From Squalus acanthias (taxonomy: Eukaryota): DNA of 64,000 nucleotides. Both the position numbers and the translations under genes were made by a program. The notes under the pieces are model-generated. The model was not told the DNA's origin. It ran no database searches and was given only the letters and a program-made list of their open reading frames with translations. Location of the stretch: assembly GCA_030390025.1 (NCBI GenBank), contig CM059431.1, forward strand, positions 132,806,001 to 132,870,000, written 5' to 3'. This document shows positions 4,266 through 30,105 of this stretch, in pieces. Numbering within the stretch: position 1 is the stretch's first letter; every line of letters starts with the position of its first letter.

Positions 4266-4776
4266 AAGACAGGGCCTAGAAATTCGGGTGGTTTGCGTCA
4301 CTCATTAGCACGGAGTAATGTTTAGAAAATGGCAGCCTGCGCTCTTCCGCCAGCTGGTGGCGGATTCCGTGGCAGGCGCCATTTTGGAACTGCCAGTAGT
4401 GCTGCCGGTAAACGCGATCGCTAGAGCAATTTAAATGAGCGAGATCGTGACGTCAGTGAGTATGCAACGCTCACCTGATGCCCGATCTGCAGGGTTGGTT
4501 CTTGCCATTGAACTTACCGGCAGGTCTAAACAATGACAGGGAGAGCAGGTGTCCAACAGCAGGAGGAAGGCTCCAGCAGTGATATGTAAAGGGATTAGCC
4601 GCAATCCGTTGCACTTGACATGGTTCTGCAGTTTGAATGGCTCTGTGCTACGTTCTGCAATTCCACCAGCTTTCTTTACTTATTTCAAGGTTATTTGGTA
4701 ACAGAGAGTGTTGTTGCAAGTAAAGAATTCCCTCATTCTTTTTAAAGGCTTCTGCTCACAACACTTGCTCACAGTC

Positions 4777-5903
4777 ATGGGGGCTATACTGGCAGTCGCC
4801 CTCGCCCTCCAGGATCTACGGCAGTGGAAGTGACAGCAGCGAGGAAGACAGGAACATATGCGCAGAGGGAGGAGGAGGAGGGCCTTGAGGGCTCTCAACA
4901 AGAGGCCTTATCCACCTAGGGTCTTCCGACAGCACTTATTCTACCTCCAATTAAGCGAGGAGCAGAGTCTTAGAAGGCTACGCTTCACCAAGGAGGTGGT
5001 CACAGAACTCTGCCACGGCTACCACGGCTCTCCCAGTGGCAGTCAAGGTCACCGTGGCTCTCAATTTCTTTGCCAGTGAATCCTTCCAGTCTGCAGCAGG
5101 AGACTTAGCTAACATCTCACAGTTCGCCGTCCATCGCTGCATCTGGGAGGTCACTGAGGCTCTCTACACCAGGGGAAGTGACCACGTTGGCTTCTCTCTC
5201 AGCAGAGAGAAGCAGGACGAGCGCGCTTGTGGCTTTGCCAGTATAGCGGGCTTCCCCATGGTGCAGGGCGCCATCAAATGCACCCATGTGGCTTTGTGGG
5301 CACCGCAAAACAATCCTGAGATCTTCCGTAACCGCAAAAGCTACCACTCACTTAATGTGCAGCTGGTGTGCGACCACACACAGCGAATCCTCAGTGTCAA
5401 TGCCCGCTATCCTGGCAGCAGCCATGATGCCTTCATCCTTCACCAGTCTGATGTGCCAGCAATTTTCCAGCCACCACAGTAAACTCAAGCGCGGCTGCTC
5501 GGAGACAAGTGCTATCTGCTCTGCACCTGGCTCATGACTTCCCTCCACAACCCCAACACTCGTGCCCAGCACTCACATAATGAGAGCCGTGCTTCCACCA
5601 GGAACATCATTGAGCAGACCATCAGGCTACTGAAGCAATGGTTCCACTGTCTTGACTGCTCGGGAGGAGCCCTCCAGTACTCGGTGGAGAGGGCGTCCCA
5701 TTTCGTGGTGGTCTGCTGCATACTTCACAATTTGGCCATCATGAGGGTGAAGCTCTTGCCAGCTGGGATTGCAGGAGGAGGACAAGGAGGAAGAGGATGA
5801 GGACGAGGAGCAAGAGGAAGAGGAGGGAGGGAGGAGGCAGGCACCCAATTGTCCATCCGGACAGGCTGTCAGTGAGTGGCTCATCAGACTCTGATTCCAA
5901 TGA
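4777..5903 (+). pseudogene. Harbinger DDE transposase pseudogene (A)
   Basis: Fragments 4858-5079, 5036-5482 and 5534-5800 are homologous to 8424-9584, with stops and frameshifts. Catalytic IDCTH is changed to IKCTH. Confidence 0.9.
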
Positions 5904-6089
5904 ATGAAACCCCAGATCCCCGTTGCTCACCACATCTCCATCTTACCATCCCTGTCTCATGGAATATCACATCCTTCTCTTGGGCACAAAGATGAAATGA
6001 GAGACACAACAAAAGATTCCAAACAAAATTAATAAATTTATCAATACTCTTTACAATAATATTACTAACTAATCACCCTTGTGCAATCC

Positions 6090-7947
6090 CTTAGTGTCTG
6101 TCTTTCGTGTGTGTTTTCCTAACCTAGTGCTCCTACGAAGTGCTCCCCCAGTGGCTGCAGCATAGCTGGTGCAAGGCTGCTGAGTTTCCGTGCGGGAGAC
6201 TTCAGGTGGCCTTGCAGGATGACCTCAAGCAGCTCTGGACCTAGAAGGCCTGGCTGTAGACTACACCACCTCGGCATGGGCGACAGCAGTCTGGGCTGCC
6301 TGGCTAACAGGCAGTAACAAGGGCAATGGCGGAGTGGGAGTAGGAATGCTGTCATCCTGAGAGAGGATAGCAGGGTCCTGCTTCAATGACCCACTGCCAC
6401 TCCCCCGAATGACTCAGCATTCCTAGCAATCTTTTGGCGCACAGATTGCTGGCCTGCAGCAACACCCTGCAAGCCCCCGGTCGACGTTGGTAAACCCAGT
6501 GACGATGGCAGCAGTCAGAGCTTGGGAGGATTCAAGCTGCGACTACATGACAGCAGTCTGAGCTTGGGTGGCTTCAATCTGAGACTGCATGAGAGCAGTC
6601 TGAGCTTCCGCTGCAGCACGAAGACATTGGGTCACTTCCGCCTGTGCTGCAATGGAAGCTGCGACATCACCCATCATGCGCGTCATCATGTTTGGCTCGC
6701 CACGGTCTCTCTGGGAGTGTATGATCATTTCCAGGCTGGAAATCCTTGGCTCCATGCTCTGCGCAGAGCCCCGTGCAATGTTGGAGTGGGATTCCTCCAC
6801 ACTCCTTGACATTGCCAAGATGCTCTCTGGCAGCCTTGCCATTGCACCTAGCAATTCGGTGTGCATGCCCATCACCCTTTATCTGAAGGCCATCCCATCG
6901 AGGTCCTCATCTGAGTCCTATGCAGCAGAATTTGCCCTCCGGGGAGCTGGCCCCCGAGCTACCCTTTCCACCTGGCCTTGCTGCAGCCCACTCGTGACCC
7001 GTGCATCACCCAGTGCAGATCCCGCTGCTACACTCGCCTCTAAAGTATGTGCAATGCCAGTTTCTGAGCTGGTGTCTGCAAGTGACAGATGCAGTGACAC
7101 TTCTTCTTCTTCTTCTTCCCCCTCGCTCTCAGCAGTGCCCTCAGGGACAGGCTGCTCCAGTGCCTGTTGATTATCTGAAAGCAGAAAGGCACAAGAGTCG
7201 GGTTATGGTGAGGGGAGGTGATATGCATGCATACAGCATGAGTAGTTTGAAAGTGAGAAAAGATTGTGGGTTGAGGGGGGAAGTGGGATGTGAGAAGAAG
7301 GATTAGGAATGACCATACCGTTGTTGTCCCCAAGGGGCTGAACCTCGCTGGCGGCCACGGCCTCTACCACGTGGCGCCCAATGATTTTGAGTACTCTATT
7401 CTCGAGATGGCTGAGGTGTTGAAGGGCCGCTTGGCCCCCACCTGTTTGCTCCTGCTCCCTCTGATTATGAGCGAGTTTACCCTGCAAGAGAGAGAGAAGT
7501 GTGTGAGTGAGTTTAGTGCAATGTGTTTGGGTGATGTACCTGCCATAGTTGAACAACTGCCATTGTGTGCAGGGTGTGAGATGTGGGTGTGAGTGTTGCT
7601 AGGTAGAGATTGTTGGATTGTTGCTGGGGGTGTGGTGCATTGAGCAGTGTGTGAGGCTTGTGGTGCAGACGGTGGTATGTGGCATTTGCTGAAGCCTTCA
7701 CTCACCTTGACCACCCGTGTGAGGTTGGTAAACTTCTGCCTGCACTGGGTGTGCGTCCTGGGGACCTCAGTGCTGGTTGTGACATGGTCCGCCACCTCAT
7801 GCCACATGGTCCGGGATGTGTGCTGGGAGGGCCTCCTGCTAGTCTGCAGGTACAGTACCGCCCGCCTCCTCTCCACCGCAAATATCAGTGCCTGCAGAAC
7901 TTCATCGGCGAATCTATGGGCTCTCTCCCTCCACTTCGTTCTGCCAT
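6090..7947 (-). pseudogene. Harbinger Myb/SANT-like gene pseudogene (A), 3 exons
   Basis: Myb motif RF...W.EVA...RTHTQCRQKFTNL. Exons are 7947-7706, 7481-7319 and 7174-~6090, with GT/AG boundaries and in-frame stops in exon 3. Confidence 0.8.
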
Positions 7948-8278
7948 GAGCACTTGTAACTTCGGTTCCTTTTCGTGAGTCTTCTTTACTTTGATGTTGG
8001 GGCAGCTGAACAGCCAACCACCCTGACAATGAACTGCTGCAGCATGTTAATAAAGAGTGAGCACAAATTTTGCGTGCTACCTAGATGATTTTCAGGTGGC
8101 GCAATTAACCTCATTTAGTCTTAACACTGCACATTTCTTAGCTAACTCCAATTTCTAGGCCAAGATCTCCACATATGGTGATTCACAGTATAAGGGCTAG
8201 AAATTCATTATAGCCAAGGAATGGGCGGTGTCAGTAGAAAAGTTGGGGAATTAGCGCCAGGCTATGCACCACTCGTTC

Positions 8279-8319
8279 TGAGAGAGAGAGAGAGATTCGG
8301 AGAGAGAGAGAGAGAGAGA
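8279..8319 (+). repeat. (GA)n microsatellite upstream of the transposase
   Basis: Direct reading of the sequence. Confidence 0.9.
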
Positions 8320-8423
8320 CTTCTACATTGACTCAACGCTTTGTGAGGTAGTTTTGCCTAGTTCATCCTAACTTTGCTGCTACTTTCGTTGCTGTACCTC
8401 ATTACTTTTCTGGCAAAGAGAAG

Positions 8424-9584
8424 ATGGGGGCTGCAATGATTGGGGGCGTCGTCCTGCTCCAGCTCAATCGGAGCAGAGTGAGACGCAGACAGAGAGTGGC
8501 AATGATGGCCAGACGGAGGAGGCCCATCAGGCGCATGTACAGGAGAGCTTACCCTCCCAGGGTATATCGTGAACAGCTCTCCTACATCCACATGTCCGAG
8601 GAGCTGTGTTTGCGAAGGCTGCGATTCAGCAAGGAGGTGGTCACTGAGCTCTGCCACCTGCTGCAGCCAGATCTGCAGCCTCAGCTGAGGTCCAGGACGT
8701 CTCTGTCGGTGGCAGTGAAGGTCACAGTGGCCTTGAACTTCTACGCCACTGGCTCATTCCAAGCTGCTGTTGGGGACCTCGCCAATATCTCCCAGTTTGC
8801 GGTGCATCGCTGCATCCGGCAGGTCACCAATGCCCTCTTCACAAGGAGACGAGACTTCATCTCCTTCCCTATGACCCCAGACAAGCAGCATGACCGTGCT
8901 ATGGGCTTTGCGAGGGTAGCGGGCTTCCCCATGGTGCAGGGCGCCATTGACTGCACGCATGTGGCTTTGCGTGCTCCGCGAGAGAATGCAGAGGAGTTCC
9001 GGAACAGAAAGGGGTTCCATTCCTTGAATGTGCAGTTGGTCTGTGACCACAGACAGGTGATTCTCGCTGTCAATGCCCACTATCCGGGCAGCTGCCACGA
9101 TGCTTTCATCCTGCGCCAGAGTACTGTGGCAGAAATTTTCGAGGCACCGCATCAGCCAGTTGGTTGGCTTCTGGGGGACAAGGGGTACGCATTGAGCACC
9201 TGGCTGATGACACCGCTCCGTGCGCCAAACACCCCTGCTGAGCTGCGGTACCAGGAAAGCCAACAAGCAACGAGGAACATTATTGAGCGCACAATCGGCG
9301 TGCTCAAACAACGATTCCGCTGTCTGGACCATTCCGGAGGAGCCCTGCAGTACTCGCCTGAGCAAGTTTCCAAATTCGTAGTGGTGTGCTGCATGTTGCA
9401 CAACATGGCAATCCTCAGGACGCAGCCAATGCCACCAGGCCTTGCAGCACCACAAGAGGAGGAGGAGGAAGAGGAGGAACAGGCCGAGGACGATGATCAG
9501 CAGCAGCACCAAGGCAGGAGGGCGGCCCACAATGGTCAAACTGCAAGGGCCGTCCGTCAACGACTAATAGCAAGCCGCTTCTAG
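8424..9584 (+). CDS. PIF/Harbinger DDE transposase, 386 aa (HARBI1-like family)
   Basis: Intact ORF with GAIDCTHV, RNRKGFHSLNVQLVCD, PGSCHDA, LLGDKGY and RNIIERTIGVLKQRF motifs, plus an acidic C-terminal tract. Confidence 0.95.
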   Translation: MGAAMIGGVVLLQLNRSRVRRRQRVAMMARRRRPIRRMYRRAYPPRVYREQLSYIHMSEELCLRRLRFSKEVVTELCHLLQPDLQPQLRSRTSLSVAVKVTVALNFYATGSFQAAVGDLANISQFAVHRCIRQVTNALFTRRRDFISFPMTPDKQHDRAMGFARVAGFPMVQGAIDCTHVALRAPRENAEEFRNRKGFHSLNVQLVCDHRQVILAVNAHYPGSCHDAFILRQSTVAEIFEAPHQPVGWLLGDKGYALSTWLMTPLRAPNTPAELRYQESQQATRNIIERTIGVLKQRFRCLDHSGGALQYSPEQVSKFVVVCCMLHNMAILRTQPMPPGLAAPQEEEEEEEEQAEDDDQQQHQGRRAAHNGQTARAVRQRLIASRF

Positions 9585-9879
9585 GACCCCTGCCAGTGCT
9601 ACAAACACGAATCAACCCAGCACGCAACCCCTAAGCCGGCCAAGGCACCAATAATTCCAACCACCAGCCATGTATATTTTGAATACAGAAACTTATTTAT
9701 TGTACAAACTCTGTGTGTGTCAATTCCTCATGACAAACTCATAGAAATAAACACAAAAAAAACAGTCAATAACATAACTGGTTCTCACAACCTGGAGATA
9801 ATGTCCAAAACACTAAACAAAAGTTGGGCCATGAACCTCGGCCTTTAATAAAAAAATGACCAGCATTTTGGCACACCTC

Positions 9880-10946
9880 CTACTTTTTGCCCTTCGAGGG
9901 TGATCTCCTTCCCTTGCGCACTTCCCCCCTTCTAACCCTACTGCTCCTCCGTAATGGGACCTCAGTGGCTGCAGCAAGGCTGGTGGAAGGCTGCTGCTTG
10001 TCAGACCCTGACAGTGCAGATGCCCCTGAAGGACGGCCTCGACCACTTCTGGGCCTGGAGGGCCCGGCTGCAGACTGCACCAACTCTGCATGGGCGGCAG
10101 CAGTCTGTCCTACAGGCGGTGGCAAGTGCAGTGGAGAAGTGACAGTGTTGGCAGCAGGAATGCTGTCATCGTGAGAGAGGACAGCAACTCCCTGCTCGCC
10201 CGACACACTGGCACTCCCACGGGGCAGCACTTCAGCATCCGGAGCAATTTGCCTGAGAACAGATTGCTGGCCTGCTGCGGCGCGGTGACAGCCCCAGGGA
10301 CATGTGCACGAACCATCGAGGATGGCAGCAGTCAGTGCTCGCGTGGCCTCAATCTGAGTCTGCATGAGAGCAGGCTCAGATGGGTTCCTGGCAGCCAGTG
10401 ACTGAATTGCAGCAGTAAGCTTTAGTGTGGCATCCGCCTGTGCTACAGCGAAGTGCTCCACACTCCTTGCCAGTGCCTCAATGCATTCGGGCACCCTTCC
10501 CACTGCACCCATGAGCTCAGTGTGCATGACCACCGCCTGGCTGTTCATTTCTGCAATCAGCCGCTCCTCCTCTGCGTCCATTGCATTAGGAGTGTCTGGC
10601 ATACTCTCCCTCTGGGGAGAAGGCTCCCGTTCTTCCCTCCCCCCCCCATGGCGTTGCTGCAGCCCGCTGGGTCCTGGAACTTCACCATCATCAGCCCCTT
10701 CCCCCCTGCTCCCCCGTTCTTCCCTCCCCCCCCCATGGCGTTGCTGCAGCCCGCTGGGTCCTGGAACTTCACCATCATCAGCCCCTTCCCCCCTGCTCCC
10801 CTCCGGGGAAGGCGTGTTCCCAGTGTGGCCATGGGCTTCCTCGGGAGAGGGTGGCACTGATGCTCCGGCTTCCTCTTCCTCCTCAGCTGCAGCATCACTC
10901 CCAGTGGCAGCTTCAGGGACCATCTCCTCAGCTGGTGAATCACCAT
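9880..10946 (-). CDS. Harbinger B Myb/SANT-like protein, exon 3
   Basis: Acceptor CCCTGCTTTCAG joins in frame to ORF 9880-10923. The spliced CDS is 1467 nt (488 aa) with a basic NLS-like C-terminus. Confidence 0.85.
10626..10800. repeat. 87-bp in-frame tandem duplication (2 copies)
   Basis: The 29-aa segment GSRGEGADDGEVPGPSGLQQRHGGGREER is repeated. Confidence 0.95.
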
Positions 10947-11105
10947 CTGAAAGCAGGGAGGTACAAGAGTGGCTTTAGCGTGAGGACAGGGTGGCAGTAA
11001 GGGAGGAATAAGTGCAGCGAGTTAGCAAGTTGGATTGAAAGTGTCAAAGGCTGGTATTGTGAGGGACAAGTGGAAGGACAGAGGACAAAAAGGTGATGAC
11101 CTTAC

Positions 11106-11268
11106 CATTGCTGTCCACAACGGGGTCGGCGTCTCCAGTGGCGACGGGACCGATCACCCGGCTTGCCACAATCCTGTGGACGCGCTCCTCCAGATCGCTG
11201 AGGGGTTGCAGCTGAAGCCGCCCTCCACCCGTCCGTTGCTGCTGTCTCCGATTATGAGCCAGCTTAGC
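11106..11268 (-). CDS. Harbinger B Myb/SANT-like protein, exon 2
   Basis: Acceptor TTTTCTTGCAG. Encodes AKLAHNRRQQQRTGGG. Donor ATG|GTAAG; 163 nt, phase 1. Confidence 0.85.
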
Positions 11269-11295
11269 CTGCAAGAAAAAGGACAGCATCTGAGT

Positions 11296-11520
11296 CAATA
11301 TACAGCCATGGTCTTGCCTGATGTGCCTCCCATAGGTGAATAGCCCTTACAATATGCAGCCATGGTCTTGCCTGATGTGCCTCCCATAGGTGAATAGCCC
11401 TTACAATATGCAGCCATGGTCTTGCCTGATGTGCCTCCCATAGGTGAATAGCCCTTACTGTATGCAGCCATGGTCTTGCCTGATGTGCCTCCCATAGGTG
11501 AATAGCCCTTACTGTATGCA
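11296..11520. repeat. 54-bp minisatellite, ~4 copies, in intron 1
   Basis: CAGCCATGGTCTTGCC recurs at 11303, 11357, 11411 and 11465. Confidence 0.95.
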
Positions 11521-11660
11521 AAGTGTGGAATGTGTGTGTGTGTTTGATGAAAGGGCCATAGGTGTTGGATGAGTGTTGTGCATTGGGGTTTTAAGACCCT
11601 CTGGCCATAGAGTGAGGTTGAGATGGAGGGATGGAGAGGTATTGAGAAAAAGCCACTCAC

Positions 11661-11897
11661 CCTGACGACCCGAGTGAGGTCGTTGAACTTTTTGCGGCAC
11701 TGGACATGGGTCCTGGGCACCATGCTCCTGGAGGAGACGCTCTGAGCCACCTCCCTCCACACTCTTCTGAACTCGCGTGGCAAAGGCCTCCTGCCACTCT
11801 CTGGGAACAGCATGCATCGTCTGCGCTCCACTGCGTCAACCAGAGCATCCAAGGCCCGCTCGGTGAAGCGATGAGCGCGTTCTCTCACCCTCTCCAT
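11661..11897 (-). CDS. Harbinger B Myb/SANT-like protein, exon 1
   Basis: ATG in good Kozak context (CCAAGCATGG). Encodes RFTERALDALV...VWREVA...RTHVQCRKKFNDL. Donor AGG|GTGAGT, phase 0. Confidence 0.88.
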
Positions 11898-12362
11898 GCT
11901 TGGCAGCAAAATGGATTACAGGTCTCTCCAGGCTGAGATTCAAGGCTGCAATGAGCAGGGTGTGGCTGGGGAGCAAGTGGCCCCCCCCGCTTTAAGAAGT
12001 GTCCGGCGCCAGTGTGTCTGTGTTCCATCGCTAACTGGCAGCAGCTGCGCTGCGCTCGTGCGCTGAGTTAGCGCCTCACTCCTAGGCCTTTGCGCCTTAA
12101 GAGAGGTGTGCAGCGCCTAATTTAGCGCTCCACTCACCTCCCGGGGCGGTAAAAGTGAAGTTTCCTGTCAGTGCCGATAATTAGCGCCAGGCGCTAATAT
12201 TTGCGCGCGGACGATATTTGCGCCCCAAATGGGGCGCGACCTAATTTCTACCCCTAATGCTTTAGACTACACGCAAAATTCGTGCTCGCTGCTCAAGAAA
12301 ATGATTAGAGTCCTAATTCAAGTCTTAAAGCCCAAGCTCATTGGCGTTACACTCAAAGGGTG

Positions 12363-12507
12363 CACGCTCGAGGCATTCTACGACCGGTGGGCACCGGAGG
12401 GACTGGAGTGCATCATCACCCCCAGCAACAACATTTTTATTTAAGTTGTTAAGTTTCCTTTAATGTGTTTTTGTTAAGTTACAGTTTTATTGTTTAAACC
12501 AGAAAAG
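12363..12507 (+). mobile_element. 5'-truncated Tx1/L1-clade LINE 3' end
   Basis: Perfect 15-bp TSD TACACTCAAAGGGTG (12348-12362, 12508-12522). Encodes TLEAFYDRWAPEGLECII...*, resembling a Tx1 ORF2 C-terminus. T-rich 3' UTR. Confidence 0.7.
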
Positions 12508-12709
12508 TACACTCAAAGGGTGGACCAATATCAGGTGCAGTCTAATCGCAAGTCATGATTGCCACAGACTTTTCTCAGTACTTCAAGGGGGGGTTCATTG
12601 ATGCTGCAGCACCTCATTCTCAGCATCGCTGGCTGTGCAGCTGCCTCAGCAAGCAGAAGCAGAAGCAAGACAAGGAGCCAAGGACTGAGCCGGAGGACTG
12701 AACCAGGTG

Positions 12710-14304
12710 TACTCATCCACACCCCAGAGAGAGAGAGCCTGCAGATTCTGCGTTGAAGCATTGGGGGCATTGTTTCTTGCTGTGGAGAGATGAAAGGCAG
12801 TGCTCTACCCGGCAAGGGGCAGGAAGCCCTCGCCACAAGTCTTCCGCACCATGTGGAGGGAGGTAGCACAGCACGTCTTGGGCGGAACTGTGGTGCCCAG
12901 AACCCACACACAGTGCAGGAAGAAATTTAACGACCTCACTTGGGTGGTCAGGGTGATTGAATGCTTCAACAAATGCTACATACCACCATCTGAACCATAG
13001 TCTGCACACACTGCCCAAAGCACCACACCCCCAGCGCTCACCCATCAACAATCTCTACCTAGCAACACTCACACCCACATCTCACACCTTGCACACAATG
13101 ACAGCTATTCAACTATGACAGGCACATCACCCAAACACATTGCTCCACACTCGCTCACACACTTTCCTTTCTCTAGCAGGCCGAGGTGGCTCACAACAGG
13201 AGGGAGCAGGAGCGCACAGGCGGGGGACAAGCTCACACCCAACCACTGTCTGTGCTGGAGAATAGTGCTGCAAATCATTGGGCGCCAGGTGGTGGGTGCC
13301 GTGGCCACCGGCGAAGTTGACCCTTTTTGGGGACAACAACGGTATGTTCATCCCGACTCCTTCCTCTCACATCCCACTTCTCCCTCACCCCACAAGTGTT
13401 TCGCGCTTTCCAGCTAATCATGCTGTCTCCATGCATTTCTCCCTTCCTGCCCCCCTCCCCTCACCTTAACTCGACTCTTGTGCCTTTGTGCTTTCAGATA
13501 ATCAGCAAGCACCTGAGTAGCCTGTCCCTGAGGGCACCGTAGAGAGCGAGACGGGGGAAGAGAAGGAGGAAGAACACACATGTCTCACCCACAGGCACCA
13601 GCTCAGATACTGGCACTATGCATTTAGAGGCTAGTATATTAGCGGGATCTGCACAGGGTGAGGCACTGGGGACAAGTGGGCTGCAGCAAGGCCAGGGGGA
13701 AAGTGTAGCTCGGGGGACAGCTCCCCGGAGGACGAGTTCGCGTGCGGGTTCTGCTGCACAGGACTCAGATGAGACCTCGGTGGGGAGGCGTTTAGAAGAA
13801 GGGTGATGGGCATACACACGGAGACGATAGATGCAATGGCAAGGGTGCCCGACAGCCTCTCGGTAATGATAAGGAGCATGGAGGAGTCCGCCTCCAACAT
13901 TGCACAAGGCTCTGCGCACATCATGGAGCCCATCATTTCCAGTCTGCAAAGGATGGTGGACTCCCAGAGAGACCATGGCGACCCAGACCAGATGTCACAT
14001 ATGATGGGCGATCTGGTAGCTTCCATTGCAGCACAGGTGGAAGCGACACAATGTCTTAGTGCTGTAATGCAGTCTATGCTTGGTGGCATCCAGTCTCAGA
14101 CTGCTCTCATGCAGTCTCACCTTGATGCCACGCAAGCTCTGACTGCTGCCATTGTGGCTGGCTCTACCACCATCGACCGGGGCTTTCACGGTGTTGCAGC
14201 AGGCCAGCAATCTGTGCTCTAACAGATTGCTAGGGATGCTGAGGTGCTGCCCTGGTGGTGTGGCAGTGGGTCAGTGTAGCAGGAACCTGCTGTCCTCTCT
14301 CAAG
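12710..14304 (+). pseudogene. Myb/SANT-like pseudogene (C)
   Basis: MWREVAQ...RTHTQCRKKFNDL motif. Exon 2 is 13180-13341 and exon 3 starts at 13498. Stops and frameshifts are present. Confidence 0.8.
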
Positions 14305-17300
14305 ATGGCCCCTCGAGCCTGCTCTGCCATTCAATAAGATCATGGATAATCTTCTACCTCCACTCCACTTTCTTGCAATATCCCCATATCCCTTAATTCC
14401 ATTAATATCCAAAAATCTATCGCTCTCTGTCTTGAATATATTCAACAACTGAGCCTCCACAGCCCTCTGGGGTAGAGAATTCCAAAGATTCACCACCCTC
14501 TGAGTGAAGAAATTTCTCCTCAGCTCAGTCCTAAATGGCCGACCCCTTCTTCTGAGACTGTGATCCCCCGGTTCTAGACTCCCCAGCCAGGGGAAACATC
14601 CTCCCTGCATATATCCTGTCAAGCCCTGTAAGAATTTTGTATGTTTCAATGAGATCACCTCTCATTCTTCTAAATTCTAGAGAATATAGACCTAGTCTAC
14701 TCAATCTCTCCTCATAGGACAATCCCCCATCCCAGGAATCAGTCTGGTGAACCTTCTTTGCACTCCCTCTAAGGCAAGTATATCCTTCCGTAGGTAAGAA
14801 GACCAAAACTGTACACAATACACCAGGTGTGGTCTCACCAGGGCCCTATATAATGGCAGTAAGATGTCTTTACTCTTATACTCAAATCCTCTTGTAATAA
14901 AGGCCAACATACCATTTGCTTTCCTAATTCCTGATTGTTAACTTTCAGTGATTCGTGTACAAGGACACCCAGGTCCCTCTGAACACCAACATTTCCCAAT
15001 TTCTCACCTTTTAAAAAATACTCTGCTTTTCTATTTTTCCTACTAAAGTGGATAATTTCACATTTCTCCATATTATATTCCATTTGCCATGTTCTTGACC
15101 ACTCACTTAGCCTGTCTATATCCCCTTGAAGCCTCTTTGCATCCTCCTCACAACTTACATTCCCACCCAGCTTGGTATCATCAGCAAACTTGGATATATT
15201 ACAATTGGTCCCCTGATCCAAATCGTTGATATAGATTGTGAATAGCTGTGGCCCAATCACTGAACCTTGCGGTACCCCACTAGTTACAGCCTGCCAATCT
15301 GAAAATGACCCGTTTATTCCTACTCTCTGTTTTCTGTCCGTTAACCAAGCCTCAATCCATGCTAGTATATTACCCCCAATCCCATGAACCCTAATTTTGT
15401 TTAATAACCTCTTCTGTGGCCCTTTATCGAATGCCTTCTGAAAATCCAAATACACCACATCCACTGGTTCTCCCTTATCTATTCTGCTAGTTACAACCTC
15501 AAAAAACTCTAACAGATTCGTCAAACACGATTTCCCTTTCATAAATCCGTGTTGACTCTTCCCAATTCTATTATAATTTTCTAAGTGCCCTGTTACCACA
15601 TCTTTAATAATAGATTCTTGCATTTTCCCTACTACTGATGTCAGGCTAACTGGTCTGTAGTTCCCCATTTTCTCTCTCCCTCCTTTCTTAAATAGTGGGG
15701 TTACATTTGCTACTTTCCAATCCATGGGAACCATTCTAGAATCTATGGAATTTTGACAACCAATGCATCCACTATCATTATAGCCACCTCTTTCAAAACC
15801 CTAGAATGTAGGCCATCAGATCCAGGTGTTTTATCAGCTTTCAGTCCCATTAATTTCTCCAGTACTATTTTTTTACTAATACTAATTTCTTTCAGTTCCT
15901 CATTCTCGCTAGAGCCTTGGTTCTCTACTATTCCTGGGAAGTTTTTTGCGCCTTCTTCTGTGAAGACAGACACAAAGTATTTGTTTAATTTCACTGCCAT
16001 TTCCTTATTCCCCATTATAATTTCTCCTGTCTCAGCCTGTAAGGGACCCACATTTACTTTTGCTAATCTTTTCCTTTTTACATACCTATAGAAGCTTTTA
16101 CAGTCTGTTTTTATGTCTCTCGCTAGTTTACTCTCATATTCTATTTTCCCTTTCTTTATCAATTTCTTGGTCCTCCTTTGCTGAATCCTAAAATCCTCCC
16201 AATTCTCAGGGTTATGACTCTTTTTGGCAACATTATAAGCCTCTTCCTTTCATCTAATATTATTTTTAACTTCTCTTGTTAGCCACGGTTGGACCATTTT
16301 TCCTGTGGGGTTTTTGTACCTTAAAGGAATGTGTATTTGTTGTAAATTATGTATTAATTCTTTAAATGCTAGCCATTTCTTCTCTACCATCATACCTTTT
16401 AATGTAGTTTCCCAATCTACCTTAGCCAACTCGCCCCTTATACCTATATAGTTTGCTTTGTTTAAATTTAAGACTCTAGCTTCGGATTTAACTAAATCAC
16501 TTTCAAACTTAATATAAAATTCTATCATATAAAAGGCCCCTTTACTACAAGGTTATTAATCAACCTTTTCTCGTTGCACAATACTAGATCTAAAATAGCC
16601 TGTTCCCTAGTTGGTTCCTCAGCATACTGATCTGGAAAACTATCTTGCATATATTCCATGAATTCGTCCTTCTATTACTGCCAATTTGGTTTGCCCAGTC
16701 TATATGTAGATTAAAGTCCCCCATGATTATTGTATTACCCTTGTTGCATGGGCCTTTAATTTCCTGATTTATACTCTGCCCTACATTACTGTTTGGGGGC
16801 CCATAAACAACTCCCACCAATGTTTTCTGCCCCTTTTATTTCTTAGCTCCACCCAAACTGATTCTACTTCTTGATTTTTCGGAGCTAAGATCCTTTCTCT
16901 CTACTGTTTTTATCCCATCCTTTATTATCAGGGCTACTCCTCCTCCTTTTCCATTTTACCTATCTCTTCTAAAAGTTAAGTATCTTGGAATATTTAGTTC
17001 CCAACCTTGGCCATATTGTAACCACGTCTCTGCAATGGCTATTAGATCAAACCTATTAATTTTTACCTGCACTATTAATTCATCTATTTTGTTGCAAATG
17101 CTTCACGCATTCAGATACAGTGCCTTTACCTTTGACTTATTTCTATTTTTCCCTGATGTCATCTTAGTCACTGGTGCCGTATTACCTTGGTTACTCTCTC
17201 TGTCCCTTCCTGACCCACTCTGCTAAATTTTACCCAAAACTCTACTCTGCTCTAGAGCCTTGGCATTTCTCTCGCTGCTTTTAAATTTACTCTTTCCTGA

Positions 17301-18500: not shown

Positions 18501-18769
18501 AATAAAACACTCTGTTTAAGTCCACTCCGCTTTAATCCTGCTCTGTGCAGAGTAGGCAAAGGCACAGTAACAAGAGGCACTAAGGGATTGCACAATGGTG
18601 AATAGTTAATATTTTTGGTGTAAATATGTGTTCACTGATTTTTGATAAAGTTATTAATTCAGTTTGGATTCTTTTGTGGTGTGTCTCATTTCAGCTTTGC
18701 GCTGTGATATGGCCTGCGACAGGGATGGAATGATGGGGATGTGGTGAGCAACGGGGATTTGGGGTTTAA

Positions 18770-19914
18770 TTAATTCAAACCAGTCTGATGAGGCGATCAC
18801 GGACCGCCCTTCCGGAAGGCCAATTGAGTGGCTGCCTCCTCCCTCGGTCCTCGTTCTCCTCCTCTCCCTCTTCCTCCTCCTGAGGTGGTCCTGCAATCCC
18901 TGGTGGCAAGGGCTGGGCCCTCATGATGGCCAAGTTGTGGAGCATGCAGCAGACCACCACGAAATGGGACACCCGCTCAGCCGAGTACTGGAGGGCTCCT
19001 CCCAAGCGGTCAAGGCAGCTGAACCGTTGCTTCAGCAGGCCGATGGTCTGCTCGATGATGTTCCTGGTGGCAGCATGGCTCTCATTATATGAGTGCTAGG
19101 CACGAGTGGTGGGGATGTGAAGGGGAGTCATGAGCCAGATGAAGAGCAGATAGCCCTTGTCTCCGAGCAGCCAGCCACGAACTTGATGTGGTGGCTGGAA
19201 GAGTGCTGGCACACCAGCCTGGCACAGGATGAAGGCATCATGGCTGCTGCCAGGATAGCGGGCATTGACATTGAGGTTTCGCTGTCTGTGGTCACACACC
19301 AACTGCACATTAAGTAGTGGTAGGCTTTGCGGTTAAGGAAGATCTCAGGATTGTTCTGCGGTGCCCACAAAGCCATATGGTACAGTCAATGGTTCTCTGC
19401 ACCATGGGGAATCCCACTATCCTGGCAAAGCCACATGCATGCTCATCCTGCTTCTCTCTGGTGATGGGGAAGGAAATCTAGTCCCTTCTTCTACTGTAGA
19501 GAGCCTCTGTGACCTCCTGGATGCAGCGATGGACAGTGAACTGCGAGATGTTAGCTATGTCTCCTGTTGTAGACTGGAAGGCTCCGCTAACGAACAAATT
19601 GAGGGCGACGATGACCTTGACTGCCACTGGGAGAGCTGTGGTCACCCTGGTCTGAGGCTGGAGGTCTGGTTGCAGGAAGTGGCAGAGTTCTGTGACCACC
19701 TCCTTGATGAAGCGGAGCCTTCTAATACACTGCTCCTCACTTAATTGGAGGTAGGAGAAGCGCTCTTGGAATACCCTCGGAGGGTAAGACCGCCTGTTGA
19801 AAGCCCTGATGCCCTCCTCCTCCCTCTGGCCACATGTTCCAATCTTTCTCGCTGCCTCCGCTCCCTCCGCCGTAGATCCTGGAGGGCGAGGTCGACTGCC
19901 AGTACAGCCCCCAT
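18770..19914 (-). pseudogene. Harbinger transposase pseudogene (C)
   Basis: Fragments 19478-19984, 19096-19308 (LLGDKGY) and 18775-19005 are homologous to 8424-9584. Confidence 0.9.
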
Positions 19915-20577
19915 TAATGTAACCAAGTGTAGCAGTTTGATTCTTTGAAGAAGAAATGTAACTAATTTTTAGTTGCCACAACACTCCCGATACAAAAGAA
20001 CCTTGAATTTACAAACTGACAAGAAACCACAGAAACTGCACTAACCTGACAGCTGCGAGTCATTACTGGTGATCCCTTTAAATAACGTCCCTGGAGCCGG
20101 CTTCCTGTTGCTTTGCGCCAGCTCTCCCTGTCGGTGTTTACTCCAGGCGCTAAGGTAGGTGGCGACAATCAATTTAGCAGATCGGGCGATCAGTGAGTGT
20201 TGCACACTCACTGATGTCACGATCCACCTGATGTTGATGTTCCCGGCGATAACGCTTACCCCCGGCACTACGGGGGGGGGGGGGCGCGGGATTTGGCGTG
20301 CGCCGCTGGATTCGCCTCGCCCCGGTGATACTGGTCTAGTGCCCCCGTTAGCGCCATCTGCTGGCACTAATGGGAGGTGCCACGGGGACAAATTTTTCCC
20401 CCTTGGAGTCCACGTACCTCAGAATCTACTGCATATCTTGATATACCAATATCATGACATAATTCAATGTCATTGTTGTACTTAGTTACTAACCCAAGTA
20501 CAATTGCTCATTTTGACCCGAATTGTGTGCCAGTATGAAATATTAATTTTGTCTAAAACCAAATGCTCCTGTATAAG

Positions 20578-22389: not shown

Positions 22390-24310
22390 ATGGAAGGATG
22401 TAGAGAGAGGGCGCCCAGGTTCTCGGACACGGCACTGGAGGTCCTGCTGGAGGAGGTCCAGAGGAGGAGAGATGTCCTCTACCCACAGGGGGGAAGGACG
22501 CCACAGAGGCAGCTAATGCAGTGCATGTGATAGGAGATCGCCCAGGAGGTGACAGCCAGGAGCCCTGGCCTCAGGACATGGCTCCAGTGTCACAAGAAAT
22601 TGAATAACTTGACACGAGTGGTCATGGTAAGATCCCATCTCACAAACACACTTCTCAATAACCGCACCACCACCACCAGCATCACAACCTCAACATACTT
22701 CATCCACCATCTAACTATACACTGACATTCATACACCCACACTATTGCATCCTTCACTGGCACCACTCACACATCAGGCACATCTTACAGCTCTTCAACC
22801 ATGTGAGGCATCATACAGACGCAAACACACCTATCAATACACTCATTCACAATCACCACTCTTTCTCTTCCAGGACAAGATAGCACATAAAAGGCGGCAA
22901 CAGGACCTGACTGGGGGAGGTCAACCACACCTGCATGATGTCACTCCCCTTGAGGAGGCAGTGCTGGCCGTGATCGGGAGGGGGGTGGGAGACCCCATGG
23001 CTAGAGGCAGAGCAGGGGGCATATCGCCTAGAGGTATGTGGGCACTGCAGCTTCCTTACAGATGCACAACTATTCCTGATCCCTAATCCCCCAAACCTAT
23101 CCTCATTCCCAAGTTACATATGGTCTCATCACACACATCCTCCTATAGTGACCACACGTGCTACACCTTAATCCTTCCAGCTTTATCACTACAGGCTCTC
23201 AGGAGCAAGATCCACCTTCGCTCCCTGGAACAAGTGCAAGACCCCCCCGGAGAAAGAGGAGGAGAGTGAGGAAGAATGCAGTGCGTCAGTGGCTACCACT
23301 GTCGCAGGCAGCAGCTCAGAGACTGGCACCACGTGTAACTTAGAGGCTCGCTTAGAAGAGCGATCCTCACAGTGGGACGTACCAGGCGCTAGTGGGCAGC
23401 AGCCACGCCGGGTGGAAGGGCCACCACAAGTGCCACCTTTCCATGGGACAAGGTCGTATACTAGTTCTGCTGTAGAGGAGTCAGATAAGGACCTCGCAGT
23501 GCCAAGCTTCAGAAGAAGGCTGATGGGTGCGACAAACCAAATGCTTGGTGCAATGGAGAGCCGGCCTAAAAGCCTACGGGTCATGGCTAGAGGGATGGAG
23601 GAGTCCGCCTCCACCTTGGTCTGTGGCTTGACACAGAGCCTGGAGCCCATCCTCACCAGCATGGAGAGGCTGGCCAATTCCAGCCAGCAACCTGTGGAGC
23701 CCAACATCATGCAACATCTGATGACTCAGGTTGTAGCTTCCAATCCAGTCATTGCAGCTTGCATGGAACAACAAAGTGCTGCGTTGGAAGCCCAATCAGC
23801 TTCCATTGCACTACTTGCGTCTCCATGGAATGGCAAAGTGCTGCAATGGAAGCTCAGGCAGCTGCCATGGTGGCTCTGAGCTCTTTGGTTGAAAGGGGCT
23901 TGCAGAGTGTCTCCAATGGCCAGAGATCTGTCCTCCACCAGATTACTGGGCGGGCTGAACAGAGGCCCCGAGGTAGTGGTGTGGGAATCATGGGGTAGGA
24001 ACCTGCTCTCCTCTCTCTGGATGCCAGCATTGCTGCTCCCTCCCTCGCCACTCCATCATTGCCCTTGCCGTTGCCTGTCAGCCAGGCGGTCCAGACTGCT
24101 GAAGCCCATGCTGAGGTGGTGCAGTCTGAGGCGGGGCCAACACGGCCCATTGCCTCTCAGGGCATCCTGGGAGGACATCTAAATTGCCCTCTTCAGATTC
24201 TCAGCAGCCATCCACCTCGCCTGCTGCTGCCACTGGGATTGCACTTTGTAGAAGCTCCAGATTATGTAGAAGCTCTAGATTACGCAATAGCACTCATCGA
24301 TAGCCACTAA
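22390..24310 (+). pseudogene. Myb/SANT-like pseudogene (D)
   Basis: RAPRFSDTALEVLL...RTWLQCHKKLNNL. Exons are 22390-22626, 22874-23033 and ~23195-24310, with stops and frameshifts. Confidence 0.8.
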
Positions 24311-24574
24311 GGGTAAGCACCAGGGTAAATAATTTAATATTTCTAAGTGCTGTTGGTTGTGTCATGTTTCCATTGTTGGATTTTGATGTAGATAAAGGGT
24401 TATGATGGTAATTGGGTATTGGCGGAATTGGTGGTCTTTTTTATTGTGATCTTCATGGGGAAGGAGTTGAAAGGATTGAGTGCAGATGATGGACTGCCTG
24501 ATGGATCCTAAATCGTGGAAGGTACCTCATGTGGCCAACAGTGCACCGGAGTCTGATGGTGGAGCACGTCTATC

Positions 24575-25812
24575 AAAAGCGCTCTTCAATTAGACGGTGG
24601 TGAGCGTCCATCCCAGGTGTGGGCCGTCTACCTGGAAGCCTCTGGTGCTCCCCCCAGTCCTCCTCTTCCTCTTCCTCTTCCTCCTCTTCCTCTTCCTCTT
24701 CCTCCTCTTCCTCCTCTTGTGGCTCCTGAGCTTAACCCTCTGGCACAATTGCTGGTGGTAACAACTGGCCTCTCATGATTGCCAGATTGTGGAGCATGCA
24801 GCAAACCACCACAAATCTGGACACCTTCTCAGCCCAACAGTGCAGGGCACCTCCTGACCAGTCAAAACATCTAAACCTCTGCTTGAGGACCCCAGTGGTC
24901 TGCTCAATGATATTCCTGGTGGCTGACTGGCTCTCATTGTATGAGTGCTCAGCTGGTGTCTGGGGATTTCTCAGGTGACTCATGAGCTTTATCATCAGAG
25001 GGTATCCCTTGTCACCTAGTAGCCAGCCATGCACATTGCACTGGGGCTCAAAGATCAGTGGGATGGATGACTGTCTCATTATAAATGCATCGTGGCAGCA
25101 TGCTAGATAGCAGGGATACACCTGCATGATGCGCTGCCGGAATCCTCAATCCCCTTCCTGTTCCTGAACACCTCCGAGTTTAAATGAGGTGCTCGCCTGG
25201 CCACATGTGTGCAGTCAATGGCTCCCTGGACCATGGGAATCCTGCAATCCTGTCAAATCCTAGAGCTCTCTGCCTCTGGTCTTCTCTGGCAATACGCAAT
25301 GATATATAGTCATTCCTCAGAGCATATAGAGCTGCAGAGACCTCACTTAGGCAGACATGCACAGAGGATTGTGAGATGTGACTTATATCACCTATGGCAG
25401 CCTGGAAGGTTCCAGTAGCATAAAAATTAAGTGCTACTGTGACCTTGACTGCCACAGGCAATGCAGTCTTGGCTGTGCTGTGACATCTGAATCTTCCATC
25501 CACGAGGCCACAGATTTCTGTAATGACCTCCTTGGTAAAGCGCAGCCTCCTCATGCACTGGTCTTGGGTCATGTGAATGTAGGAGTATTGCCCTCTGAAG
25601 ACCCTGGGTGGATAGCGCCCCCTGCTGAGAGCCCTACTCGCTCTCCTGTCTCTCCCTCCTGCAGCAGCTGGTGCTGCTCTACCTGCCCTCATCTCCTCCA
25701 ATTCTTCATGCAGAGCAAGGGGAGCCCATAGCAAGATGCCATTACCAAGCACTTCCTTTCTCCTGGTGACTCCTATAAGGTGTCCAATAAGGTAGGGTAG
25801 CACAGCACTCAC
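24575..25812 (-). pseudogene. Harbinger transposase pseudogene (D)
   Basis: ORFs 25180-25812 and 24732-25127 (LLGDKGY, RNIIEQT), with a (GAG/GAA)n acidic tail at 24658-24718. Confidence 0.9.
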
Positions 25813-25968: not shown

Positions 25969-26231
25969 TGTGGCGGATCGCCACCTAAAACGGGCATAAT
26001 CCACTCTTCCGTCTGTGGACAAATTTCCAGCACCTTCCCCTTTAAGGCACCTTACCTTTAAGGCAGAAGGGGGCAGGGCCTCAGGTTTTACCCGGCGAAT
26101 TCTGGGAGTTTTTCCAGAGAATTCTGGGAGCAGCTCTCTCAGCCATTTTGTGTGCCATGCAGTGAATTAAAGTTTTCTTGTTTTCCACATATGGATTCAG
26201 CCTCCATTCGTGTTTCGCGGCAGCCTCAACA
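25969..26231 (+). repeat. 5' LTR
   Basis: Differs from the 3' LTR by 3 substitutions and 1 indel (by eye). Confidence 0.95.
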
Positions 26232-26232
26232 T

Positions 26233-26246
26233 TGGTGACCCCGACG
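26233..26246 (+). promoter_or_regulatory. Primer-binding site, tRNA-Trp
   Basis: TGGTGACCCCGACG is complementary to the 3' end of tRNA-Trp. Confidence 0.9.
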
Positions 26247-26271
26247 CTCAGAACGTATTCCGAGCACTGCA

Positions 26272-29200
26272 ATGGCGGACACGAACGCAGTTTCCGTGAA
26301 ACTGCCGGAGTTTTGGGAAAACCAGCCCGAAGCCTGGTTTCTCCAAGCTGAATCTCGCTTCCGGCTGCGAAATATCACCACAGATGGGACGAAGTACGAC
26401 TATCTCGTCACATCACTCAGTAGCGCCGCAGTTTCCAAGGTTTGGACAACGCTGCAGAACCCACCAGAGGAAGGCAAGTACGCACATCTCAGAACAGCGC
26501 TCCTTAAAAAATTTACGGCCTCGGCATACCAGCGAAACTGCCACCTCCTCGACCTTCCAGGCCTCGGTGATGCCTCACCGTCAGACCTCCTCTCCCACAT
26601 GCTCTCCCTCACCGACGAGAGCCCACCCAGATCCCTCTTCCGCACGCTGTTCATCCGCCAGCTCCCTCTCAGCATCCGCCCAGCAATCGTGGCGTCCGGC
26701 CTGACGAACCTGGAAGCCCTGGCCGATGAGGCCGACAAGCTGCTGTCCGCTCACTCCAGCCGCGACGTCACTCCGGACCAGGCAGCCAATGCCTGGGCGC
26801 GCCCCTCACCATCCAGCACACGGCCACAAGGGCCTGTCACCAGGCCCACGGGGCCTTCACGCCCCACTAACCCGGGCCACTGTTACTACCACGCACGGTT
26901 CGGCGCCAGGGCACAACGGTGCACACCTCCCTGCTCTTTCAAGTCCGCCCCCGTTCCAGCCCCCGCGATGGCCGTGGGCCACGCGGGCTCCCTGCTGTTC
27001 GTCACGGATGACAAAACCGGCCGCCGGTTCCTGTGCGACACTGCGGCTCAGCACAGCATCATCCCGGCCTCCTCCCTCGACATCCAAAAGGGCAAACGAG
27101 GACCGGCGCTGGCTGCTGCTAACGGCTCGGAAATCCGGACGTACGGCACCCGGACAGTCACCCTCGACCTCGCTGGTCACCGCTACCGATGGGAGTTCAT
27201 CACTGCCAAGGTGCTCTCCCCCCTCATCGGCGCAGATTTCCTGTGTGCCCACGGCTTACTGGTAGACATCCCTCGTCACCGCCTCGTGGACATGAACACC
27301 ATGTCCCCCATCCTGGGTGCCATGGCCCCCCGTCAACCCGCCGACATGGTGTCACAGTGCCACGCCCGGGCCACGGATGACTACTCGGCACTCCTGGCCG
27401 AATTCCAGCCCTTACCAATCCGACCTTCTCCGCGGAGGCCGTCAAACACGGGGTGGAACACTTCATCCCCACCACAGGCCCCCCAGTGTACGCCCACGCC
27501 CGCAGGCTGGACCCGGCCAAACTGGAGATCGCGCGGACCGAGTTTGCCACCATGGAACAGCTCGGCATCATCCGCCGCTCCAACAGTCCCTGGGCCTCCC
27601 CACTCCACATCGCCCCCAAACCAGGCGGAGGTTGGCGCCCCTGCGGGGATTATCGCCGCCTCAATGACGCCACCACCCCTGATCGGTACCCCATGCCGCA
27701 CATTCAGGACTTCTCGGCTAGACTGGCCGGCCGCTCAGTCTTTTCCAAGGTCGACCTGGTGCGCGGCTACCACCAAGTCCCCGTCCACCCCGCGGACGTC
27801 CCCAAGACGGCCGTAATCACCCCCTTCGGCCTGTTCGAGTTCCTGCAGATGCCCTTCGGCCTCAAAAACGCGGCCCAGGCATTCCAACGGCTCATGGACT
27901 CGGTCCTTCGGGACCTGAAGTTCCTGTTCGTCTACCTGGACGACATCCTGGTAGCCAGTTCCTCCAAGCAGGAACACCTCGAACACCTTCGCATCCTGTT
28001 CGGGCGCCTCAGCGACCACGGGCTCATCCTCAGCCCAGCCAAATGCCAGTTCGGCCTGGACAAGATCGACTTCCTCGGCCACCACATCACCCATGCTGGG
28101 GCCATTCCCCTGCCCACCAAGGTGCAGGCCGTTCAACAATTTCCTCGCCCCACCACCATCAAAGGCCTCCAGGAGTTCCTTGGGATGGTGAATTTCTATA
28201 ACCGCTTCATCCCCAAAGCGGCGTCCCTCATGAGGCCCCTGTATGAAGCCCTCCGGGGCAGGAGCGGCAAGATGGCGGTCGAATGGACGGCAGATGCGTC
28301 CGCCGCCTTCGATTCCACCAAGACCGCGCTCGCCAACACCACCCTGCTCGCGCACCCACGGCCCAATGCCAGGGTAGCGCTCACCACGGACGCCTCCGAC
28401 CACGCGGTCGGCGCCGTGTATGAGCAGTGGGTCGACGGCGCCTGGCAACCACTTGCCTTCTTCAGCCGCCAACTACGCCCCACGGAGGTCAAGTACAGCA
28501 CCTTCGACTGCGAGCTCCTCGCGCTGTTCCTGGCGGTCCGCCATTTCCGGTTTTTGCTTGAGGGCCACCCCTTCACTGCGTTTGTCGACCACAAGCCCCT
28601 GACATTCGCAATGGCAAAGACAACCGACCCCTGGTCCGCCAGGCAGCAGCGCCAGCTCGCGGCAGTGTCCGAGTTCACCACGGACATCCAACACGTCTCC
28701 GGCCGAGACAATGTGGTAGCCGACTGCCTCTCCCGCCCCGCCATCCACGCCGCACACCTAGCAGTCGACTACGCTCAACTCGCAGCAGACCAGATCACCG
28801 ACCCTGATCTGCTCTCCGCACCCACCAACCTACCAGGGCTACGCCTGGCCGACGTCGCCTGTGGCCCGACCGCAGTCACGGTCAAGTGCGACATATCCCT
28901 ATGTCAACCTCGGCCCGTCGTCCCAGCGTCCTGGCGCCGCCGGGTATTCGACATTCTCCACAACCTCTCCCACCCCGGCGCCCGCGCATCCATCAAATTG
29001 GTAGCCAACTGCTTTGTCTGGCGCGGCCTTCGCAAGGATGTGCGTACTTGGGCCAACTCCTGCCTAGCCTGCCAACGGGCCAAGGTACAGCAACACACGA
29101 AAGCACCCCTCGAGGAGTTTACCGTCCCCTCGCGGAGATTCGACCACATCCACGTGGACATCGTCGGGTCCCCTGCCGCCGTCGCAAGGCCACACGCACT

Positions 29201-30084
29201 TGCTGACCATCGTTGACCGCACCACACGCTGGCCTGAGGCAATTCCACTGACCTCTACCACCACCGCCGACATCGCCAGAGCCTTCGTCAGCACCTGGGT
29301 CGCACGGTTCGGCGTCCCCTCCGACATGACGTCGGACAGAGGTCCGCAATTTACCTCTGAACTCTGGACTGCCGTCGCACGCAATCTCGGGGTGACCATT
29401 CACCGCACCACAGCGTACCACTCCCAAGCCAACGGATTGTGTGAGCGGTTCCACAGATCCTTGAAGGCATCTCTTCGAGCCAGCCTCCAAGATGGCGCCT
29501 GGACCGACCGACTTCCGTGGGTCCTCCTCGGCCTGCGCACCGCGGTTAAAGAAGACCTCCACGCATCGGCAGCAGAGCTCGTGTACGGTCATCCGCTGTG
29601 CGTACCCGGTGAGTTCCTGCCCACCGCCACGACACCCTGGTCAGCCGACCAGCAACGCCACGACTTCGCCTCACCGGCGCTGCAGTTCGCCCCGGTGCCC
29701 ATTGCCCGACACGGCGAATCCACCTCACACGTCCCACTAAGCCTGCACCAGGCACGGTTTGTTTTCGTCTGGCACTACGCCCACCGCGGACCCCTTCAAC
29801 CCCCGTACGACGGGCCCTACAAGGTGCTACAGGCTGGGGACAAATTTTTCACCCTGCAAGTGGGCGATAGGACTGAAAAAGTGTCGGTGGACCGACTGAA
29901 GCCAGCACACTCGGAGCCTGGGGAGCAGGTCCCTGTAGCTCGTCCACCTCCACGCGGCCGACCTGCCCTCAAGCCGGTTCACCCAGGCTGCTCCACGCCC
30001 AGCCGTTCCACGTCCACCGGCGTCCTACAAGAGCCGCTCCGGCCGGCCCATCAGACCGCCGCACCGTCTCGTCCACACCTCCTA
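26272..30084 (+). pseudogene. gag-pol: gag-pol polyprotein with three frameshifts (~27405, ~29168, ~29960-30020)
   Basis: Gag knuckle C-X2-H-X9-C-X3-C (CYYHARFGARAQRCTPPC), protease FLCDTAA, RT YLDD, RNase H TDAS, integrase H-H-C-C plus D/SDRG/E, and GPY motif. A C-terminal SRSGR motif ends at TAA 30084. Confidence 0.9.
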
Positions 30085-30105
30085 AGCGGATTCTGGGGGG
30101 AGCTG

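Follow-up and report, generated by a model that had tools for sequence, protein, structure and literature searches.

A young Harbinger copy nested in an older one as the probable origin of an apparently intact two-component transposon in Squalus acanthias

Is the stretch at positions 8194-12254 of a 64,000-nt window of the Squalus acanthias genome one naturally intact Harbinger transposon, or does it only resemble one? The window (GenBank assembly GCA_030390025.1, contig CM059431.1, forward-strand positions 132,806,001-132,870,000; coordinates below are counted from its first letter) is the whole stretch of DNA that was analysed. Within it the original prediction, made from the letters alone, had described a two-component element with a TAA target-site duplication (TSD) and 12-bp terminal inverted repeats (TIRs). 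The sequence from 8263 to 12254 is a young copy, here called B, of a very abundant PIF/Harbinger family with both of its genes open. The part before it, 8194-8262, belongs to an older Harbinger, C, as its Myb-side end, and C continues at 12255. We consider it very probable that the locus is a composite in which B is nested in C and has lost its own left end.

The two genes were found much as they had been described. The transposase open reading frame (ORF) of B (8424-9584, plus strand, 386 aa) is unbroken in the assembled sequence, matched PF13359 (DDE_Tnp_4) at 130.6 bits in a profile search and retains the acidic residues D176, D226, D252 and E288, which we take to be catalytic, as in HARBI1-type proteins. 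Its closest relatives were shark and ray proteins, with no more than 66% identity among the 120 listed of 372 matches (e.g., P0001 from Pristiophorus japonicus, 65% identity over 90%). The predicted structure had a predicted local distance difference test (pLDDT) score of 82.9; a fold search with this model returned no matches at E ≤ 0.001, its weak top rows being DDE transposases and integrases, and a sequence search of solved structures gave a single match, spurious and of low complexity. The convergent Myb-like gene on the minus strand was reproduced exactly, with exons of 237, 163 and 1067 nt (11661-11897, 11106-11268 and 9880-10946) and GT..AG introns of 392 and 159 nt (11269-11660 and 10947-11105) that together give one open frame of 488 aa. 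Exon 1 holds the Myb/SANT domain (PF13873, 38.3 bits; cut-off 21.7), and in exons 2 and 3 the three reading frames contain 1, 7 and 25 stops, of which the lone one is the stop that ends the protein. A search with exon 1 among longer proteins gave one match from 158 candidates. The assignment to the two-gene PIF/Harbinger (PHIS) type stands, as a DDE_Tnp_4 transposase with its acidic residues and a second, Myb/SANT gene are both present and open.

The ends were examined by aligning the contigs of four runs (X3 and X9, DNA; X17 and X19, taken for RNA by guess) to positions 7200-13200, and the results given here come from 15 of 90 contig joints, 40 of 295 variant rows (ranked by support) and a minor share of the loose ends; contig depth is not copy number. 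Element A (4273-8161, plus strand), an older, decayed Harbinger that is complete in outline, served as the anatomical reference for reading B and C. It has identical 12-nt TIRs with flanks CAG and AAG, a plus-strand transposase gene at about 4778-5800 and a minus-strand Myb gene at about 7947-6087, both with stops and frameshifts.

TAA triplets do stand at 8191-8193 and 12255-12257, and the terminal 12-mers of the unit agree at 11 of 12 positions, one fewer than claimed, with the mismatch at position 4. The contigs assign the left end elsewhere. Position 8262 is joined directly to 12255/12256, with two letters between, in two runs with two organism labels (2+2 contigs in X3; two contigs in X19, with 50 letters on the short side), which means that other genomic copies carry 8194-8262 fused to what is the right flank here. 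The depth of these joints (27-35) is of an order comparable to that of the joints over a copy-specific insertion of 160 nt in C (26-106), and a further X3 joint links 8246 to a palindrome of B at 12180. The alignments agree with the joints. Past its TIR, the segment 8194-8262 matches the Myb-side end of A in register at 29 of 57 positions (0 of 10,000 shuffles) and that of B at 23 of 57 (57 of 10,000 shuffles), while the transposase-side ends of A (17/57) and C (11/57) stay at chance level. The right flank of B matches the next part of the Myb-side end of A (0 of 2,000 shuffles), and each of the three Myb-side ends has a subterminal motif with its centre at nt 65-66. The segment 8194-8262 (minus strand) is read on these grounds as the Myb-side terminus of C, with a TIR at 8194-8205 and a subterminal half-palindrome centred at nt 66, and the TAA at 8191-8193 (plus strand) as a triplet beside the end of C and not as a target duplication of B. 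A TSD and a pair of TIRs around one intact element are therefore not confirmed, the right-hand members belonging to B and the left-hand ones to C. The apparent intactness would arise because related families share the short TIR and the end of C also abuts a TAA.

The right end is the genuine Myb-side end of B (11898-12254, minus strand), CpG-rich and with a TATA-like box, repeated TTAGCGCC-like motifs, a 19-nt palindrome (12180-12198) that is a candidate site for the Myb protein, and a TIR at 12243-12254. The TAA that follows (12255-12257, plus strand) would, judged from the joints, be the insertion site of B in the subterminal palindrome of C and the surviving copy of the target duplication; for the 3-bp TSD of TWA type, it fits insertion into a TAA of C, with the left copy lost and the TAA at 8191-8193 flanking C. 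The insertion site reads C-TAA-T, a single site whose C is deduced from the joints. The TTAGCGCC-like motif, a candidate binding site of the Myb protein, occurs in six copies within one mismatch in this right end, against a single copy in the borrowed left one. Both ends had been called CpG-rich, which holds for the right 300 nt (observed/expected ratio 0.91) and not for the left 300 nt (0.58; window, 0.43), the transposase-side ends of A and C having a ratio of 0.85. Summed contig depth over the left 11 nt was at most 50,511 in X3 and 0, 36 and 243 in X9, X17 and X19, against about 1.27 million, 14, 5,119 and 14,999 over the right 30 nt, so that the left TIR lies at least 25-fold below the right end in all four runs.

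The transposase side of B is also short of what A and C possess. Its remnant 5' leader (8263-8423, plus strand) measures 161 nt, includes a GA microsatellite (about 8280-8320) and is without the TGACRTCA box and the TATA-like box found in both relatives, which would represent the transposase promoter. The transposase ATG lies at nt 231 from the terminus when counted from 8194, compared with nt 505 in A and 489 in C, the leader being 258-274 nt shorter than theirs. The TGACRTCA box is located at nt 176 in A and 184 in C and the TATA-like box at nt 311 and 319, respectively; shared by these transposase-side ends (4273-4900 and 19913-20402), the two boxes are a candidate conserved Harbinger promoter. 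Of the features that make up an intact autonomous copy, B has two uninterrupted ORFs and lacks a terminus of its own on the left side (TIR and subterminal region) and the promoter region of the transposase. The description of a naturally intact element most likely does not hold, as the left terminus comes from the older C and the transposase-side end of B is missing together with the probable promoter.

One autonomous unit, bounded by ends that are both its own and by a genuine TAA duplication, would explain the TAA on both sides, the near-match of the TIRs, the open frames and the presence of the subterminal motif at nt 66 from either end, and the length of the unit (4,061 nt) is near the roughly 4,124 nt that consensus sequences of autonomous PIF/Harbinger elements average (PMC4482050). 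It would have to accommodate the contigs of two runs that lead from 8262 into the right flank, the Myb-side architecture of the left segment, the short leader without promoter boxes and the low depth of the left TIR; further, the shared TIR is uninformative, since A bears the same 12-mer with one change. We regard a single intact element as very unlikely.

For the nested arrangement the following history is proposed. B would have inserted at a TAA in the right arm of the subterminal palindrome of C, duplicating the TAA, and would then have lost roughly 320-345 nt of its own transposase-side end (the TIR, CpG-rich subterminal DNA and the TATA-like promoter) together with about 5 nt of C. The zone of the presumed junction between the end of C and B spans 8245-8262 (plus strand), with the exact breakpoint somewhere within it. 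Two routes, not told apart here, may have led to the loss: a deletion joined at microhomology, or gap repair that was left incomplete once an element had been excised; the available part of PMC10288884 held no information on repair. The 11/12 TIR match and the flanking TAAs would then pair the ends of two different elements. B probably cannot express its transposase from a promoter of its own and may still supply the Myb protein.

Several observations weigh against this history. The outer flanks of C (TAA and TTG) differ and offer no clean target duplication, so that C is taken as a probable single element. The own left end of B was not recovered in scans of metagenomes: a protein scan gave 595 pattern-matched stretches with no relative among them, and an 18-nt TIR pattern gave two loci, both chance matches that stop where the pattern stops. 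No contig among those listed crosses 8262/8263. Contig depth drops near ends, and any non-autonomous copies with the same right end would inflate the depth there. In X9, the depth of bin 8205-8405 fits either a contig starting near 8255 or cover of 8205-8279 plus 8329-8405, and the microhomology on the B side is presumed. Some of these points can be turned towards an artefact of the assembly, in which sequence was collapsed or wrongly joined where a short motif is shared; 8262/8263 would then be a false junction and the real locus a complete B nested in C, and the absence of a listed contig across the junction and the density of related repeats in the region speak for it. The loss amounts to just about 330 nt within ordered sequence with zero N, and, if the assembly was made from long reads, a mis-join at less than 20 nt of similarity would be unusual. 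We hold an artefact to be improbable and retain the nested, partly deleted copy as the preferred reading.

It is also conceivable that the composite is correct and that the hybrid unit, the end of C plus B, is nevertheless mobilized in trans by proteins of family B, which would make it a newborn element. The near-identical TIRs and the same motif at nt 66, each beside a TAA, would allow this, and half hybrids of rice mPing/mPong were hyper- or hypoactive (PMC9921582). Against it stand the low depth of the left TIR, which speaks against many progeny, the single left motif copy compared with six matches on the right, and the TIR mismatch at position 4, which is sensitive in mPing, a different family (PMC9921582); no literature on symmetric mPing ends was found. 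Since the right flank is still the continuation of C, this copy cannot have moved in its hybrid form. Mobilization in trans is unlikely, with some chance of being true. A more far-reaching version, which we rate as a long shot, is that sharks possess in family B a two-component Harbinger that functions natively and is active today, whose complete copies elsewhere in this genome would transpose in vertebrate cells with their genes unmodified, with the locus a newborn hybrid-ended element that B proteins could move.

A different alternative, raised in the original prediction, is that of a domesticated single-copy pair of transposase and Myb genes, to which the open frames and the predominance of synonymous over non-synonymous transposase differences (see below) might point. 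Copy abundance excludes it. In the DNA run X3, 50,084 contigs aligned, and summed depth was 313,000-991,000 over the gene-body bins compared with 101 in bin 7803-8003 of the flank. B is multi-copy, as a PIF/Harbinger family is, its dispersal being implied and not mapped. Domesticated genes of the HARBI1, NAIF1 and MSANTD type are single-copy and have no TIR, and B, which retains one, lies nested among decayed transposons; we give a domesticated pair practically no credence. The stretch was present in 20 of the 24 listed runs, 13 of them with at least half of its words, and six organism labels reached 41-89% of the words. None of these runs is recorded as RNA, and four were taken for RNA by guess.

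Family B is young and transcribed, a conclusion that the data support. Its youth follows from the few letters at which the long X9 pieces differ from the window (35 of 2,287 in the six pieces of at least 200 nt; 53 of 2,577 in all eight listed). Differences were scored for the 25 of the 40 displayed variant rows that fall in or beside ORFs, the other 15 being non-coding or in the flanks. Relative to the family majority, the transposase has seven synonymous and five non-synonymous differences (P34, I35, V212, I238 and K317), none of the five at columns conserved in alignment A1. The Myb gene has three synonymous and eight non-synonymous differences; of these eight, two represent minority alleles of codon 65, and the remaining six fall in the part of the gene encoded by exon 3, beyond the Myb domain. 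The synonymous excess in the transposase (p = 0.010 against a flat rate and 0.063 when allowing for transitions, both for a support-ranked subset of rows) is compatible with selection on active source copies. In X9, B appears at about 98.5% in long contigs of low depth, and depth is zero in 7 of 30 bins, all of them in the flanks of A and C; thin coverage of a related species and a genome that gained B separately explain this pattern equally well. A bolder version of the active-family reading would have family B spreading recently between the organisms of the six labels.

Splicing of the Myb-like gene could be followed at the level of the family. The joint 10946/11106, with CT..AC ends, was present in both runs guessed to be RNA, which come from two studies and carry two organism labels (depth 367 and 622), and absent from both DNA runs, intron 2 being skipped in X17 and X19 contigs and not in those of X3 or X9, which confirms splicing of intron 2 in family B and not for copy B itself. 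Of the two junctions proposed as a check, this one was recovered; the other, 11661/11268 for intron 1, was not seen among the 15 of 90 joints listed. The model of intron 1 is drawn from homology, with its GT and AG at identical codon positions in A, C and D (a further relic, see below) and the shark protein P0006 aligning over the junction of exons 1 and 2 (47% across 109 aa). One X17 contig continues across the border of exon 1 and intron 1 and a second one across intron 2, so that this run contains DNA or unspliced RNA, which is no evidence for intron 1 being unspliced. A perfect in-frame 87-nt duplication in exon 3 (10626-10799) and a 54-nt tandem array of about four units in intron 1 (11296-11520) may both be specific to copy B; about 90 nt are skipped at 10626-10799 by a few X3 contigs, and long X9 and X17 pieces begin at 11491. 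Outside B, the region of Myb intron 1 and exon 2 in A and C (7401-7601 and 13029-13200) had the highest depth in both RNA-guessed runs and was covered even in X9, which suggests unusual conservation among Harbinger families.

From known Harbinger biology, family B would move by a cut-and-paste reaction that takes two proteins, with the DDE transposase assisted by a Myb-like partner that binds the subterminal motifs. Harbinger needs both proteins, and in zebrafish the Myb-like protein binds a 9-bp subterminal motif and carries the transposase into the nucleus (PMC9710019, PMC9179366). Family B resembles Harbinger3_DR, the reconstructed zebrafish element (as cited in PMC9710019, PMC8151067 and PMC9179366), in its DDE transposase and Myb-like protein, its short TIRs and its repeated subterminal motifs, which in B are candidates for Myb binding. 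It differs in having open frames in a natural copy that lacks one end, the comparison being one of descriptions and not of sequences. Harbinger3_DR presumably uses a CWG target, whereas the insertion triplet of B is TAA. NuwaI and NuwaII (PHIS) likewise have two ORFs with DDE and Myb/SANT domains, and the TIR of B begins with GGG like that of NuwaI (PMC4482050); the single site of B, C-TAA-T, is not the CWG of NuwaI and is half a fit to the C-TNA-G of NuwaII (PMC4482050). The rarity of natural intact vertebrate Harbingers that the original prediction implied was overstated, for intact ones have been published: Harbinger-Snek of sea kraits has 269 intact copies in L. colubrina and one in L. laticaudata, with RNA over both genes in the latter (PMC8437027). 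Snek is, like B, a young and massively expanded vertebrate family with natural intact frames, and has many deletion derivatives; it differs in its host clade and in that horizontal transfer has been demonstrated for it, whereas the B copy is nested with one end deleted. Cartilaginous-fish proteins labelled 'putative nuclease HARBI1', P0001 among them, are the nearest relatives of the B transposase among the matches listed. Many of them are without the catalytic E or one D that B keeps and none is of the same family, and their label comes from automatic annotation and does not indicate orthology to HARBI1.

Harbinger expression and expansion have been reported in teleosts (PMC9179366) and a newt (PMC5741667). 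A 2022 fish survey recorded no Harbingers in elephant shark and proposed other cartilaginous fish for study (PMC9179366), and a 2025 shark genome paper gives Harbingers as the commonest DNA transposons, which its accessible part only names (PMC12498223). No paper describing family B was found in literature whose coverage excludes most subscription journals, Repbase and supplements.

The neighbourhood of B is itself rich in Harbinger remains. The window contains at least four other relics, namely A, C, D (about 22390-25690) and a Myb fragment near 51300; in each of A, C and D the transposase frame is broken by stops or frameshifts. The host element C would extend from its Myb-side terminus at 8194-8262 to a far TIR-like end at 20402. 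Its decayed Myb half (12258-14307, plus strand) continues 8194-8262 in register and is 76.8% identical to A over 1618 columns, aligned from 12727, and its probable transposase half with the far TIR (18553-20402, minus strand) is 77.1% identical to A over 1730 columns and lies beyond insertions of long interspersed nuclear elements (LINEs), LINE sequence separating the Myb half (12727-14307) from the transposase half (18553-20224). The Myb-side ends of A and C face each other 32 nt apart (8162-8193) and B lies about 70 nt inside C, so that three Harbinger ends fall within about 110 nt of original sequence. The roughly 160-nt insertion in C (12348-12522) is bounded by a perfect 15-nt duplication (12348 and 12508) and skipped by X3 and X17 contigs; we take it to resemble the truncated 3' end of an L1/Tx1-type LINE ORF2. 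Just past the transposase gene of D lies a young Gypsy-type long terminal repeat (LTR) retrotransposon (25969-30367), with LTRs of about 263 nt that are 98.5% identical, 4-nt GTAT flanks, and gag-like, reverse transcriptase, RNase H and integrase domains across three overlapping ORFs. A 454-aa ORF at 35118-36482, with weak reverse-transcriptase and GIY-YIG matches that are both under the Pfam cut-offs, is probably the 3' part of a Penelope-like element.

The B locus is an ordinary nested and partly deleted transposon copy, and it carries a caution, namely that the ends of two Harbingers can mimic one intact element when their short TIRs are alike and the 3-bp target is fixed. As a tool candidate the family is worth pursuing and this copy is not. 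Family B merits keeping in view in that it is young and very abundant, public RNA-type data show splicing of its Myb gene and its open transposase keeps the catalytic residues, and shark Harbingers have been little described so far. The plant Pong system has been used for targeted insertion (PMC11254759). If complete copies of B are active, the family would provide a naturally occurring vertebrate system to set beside the element reconstructed from zebrafish and the Pong system of plants.

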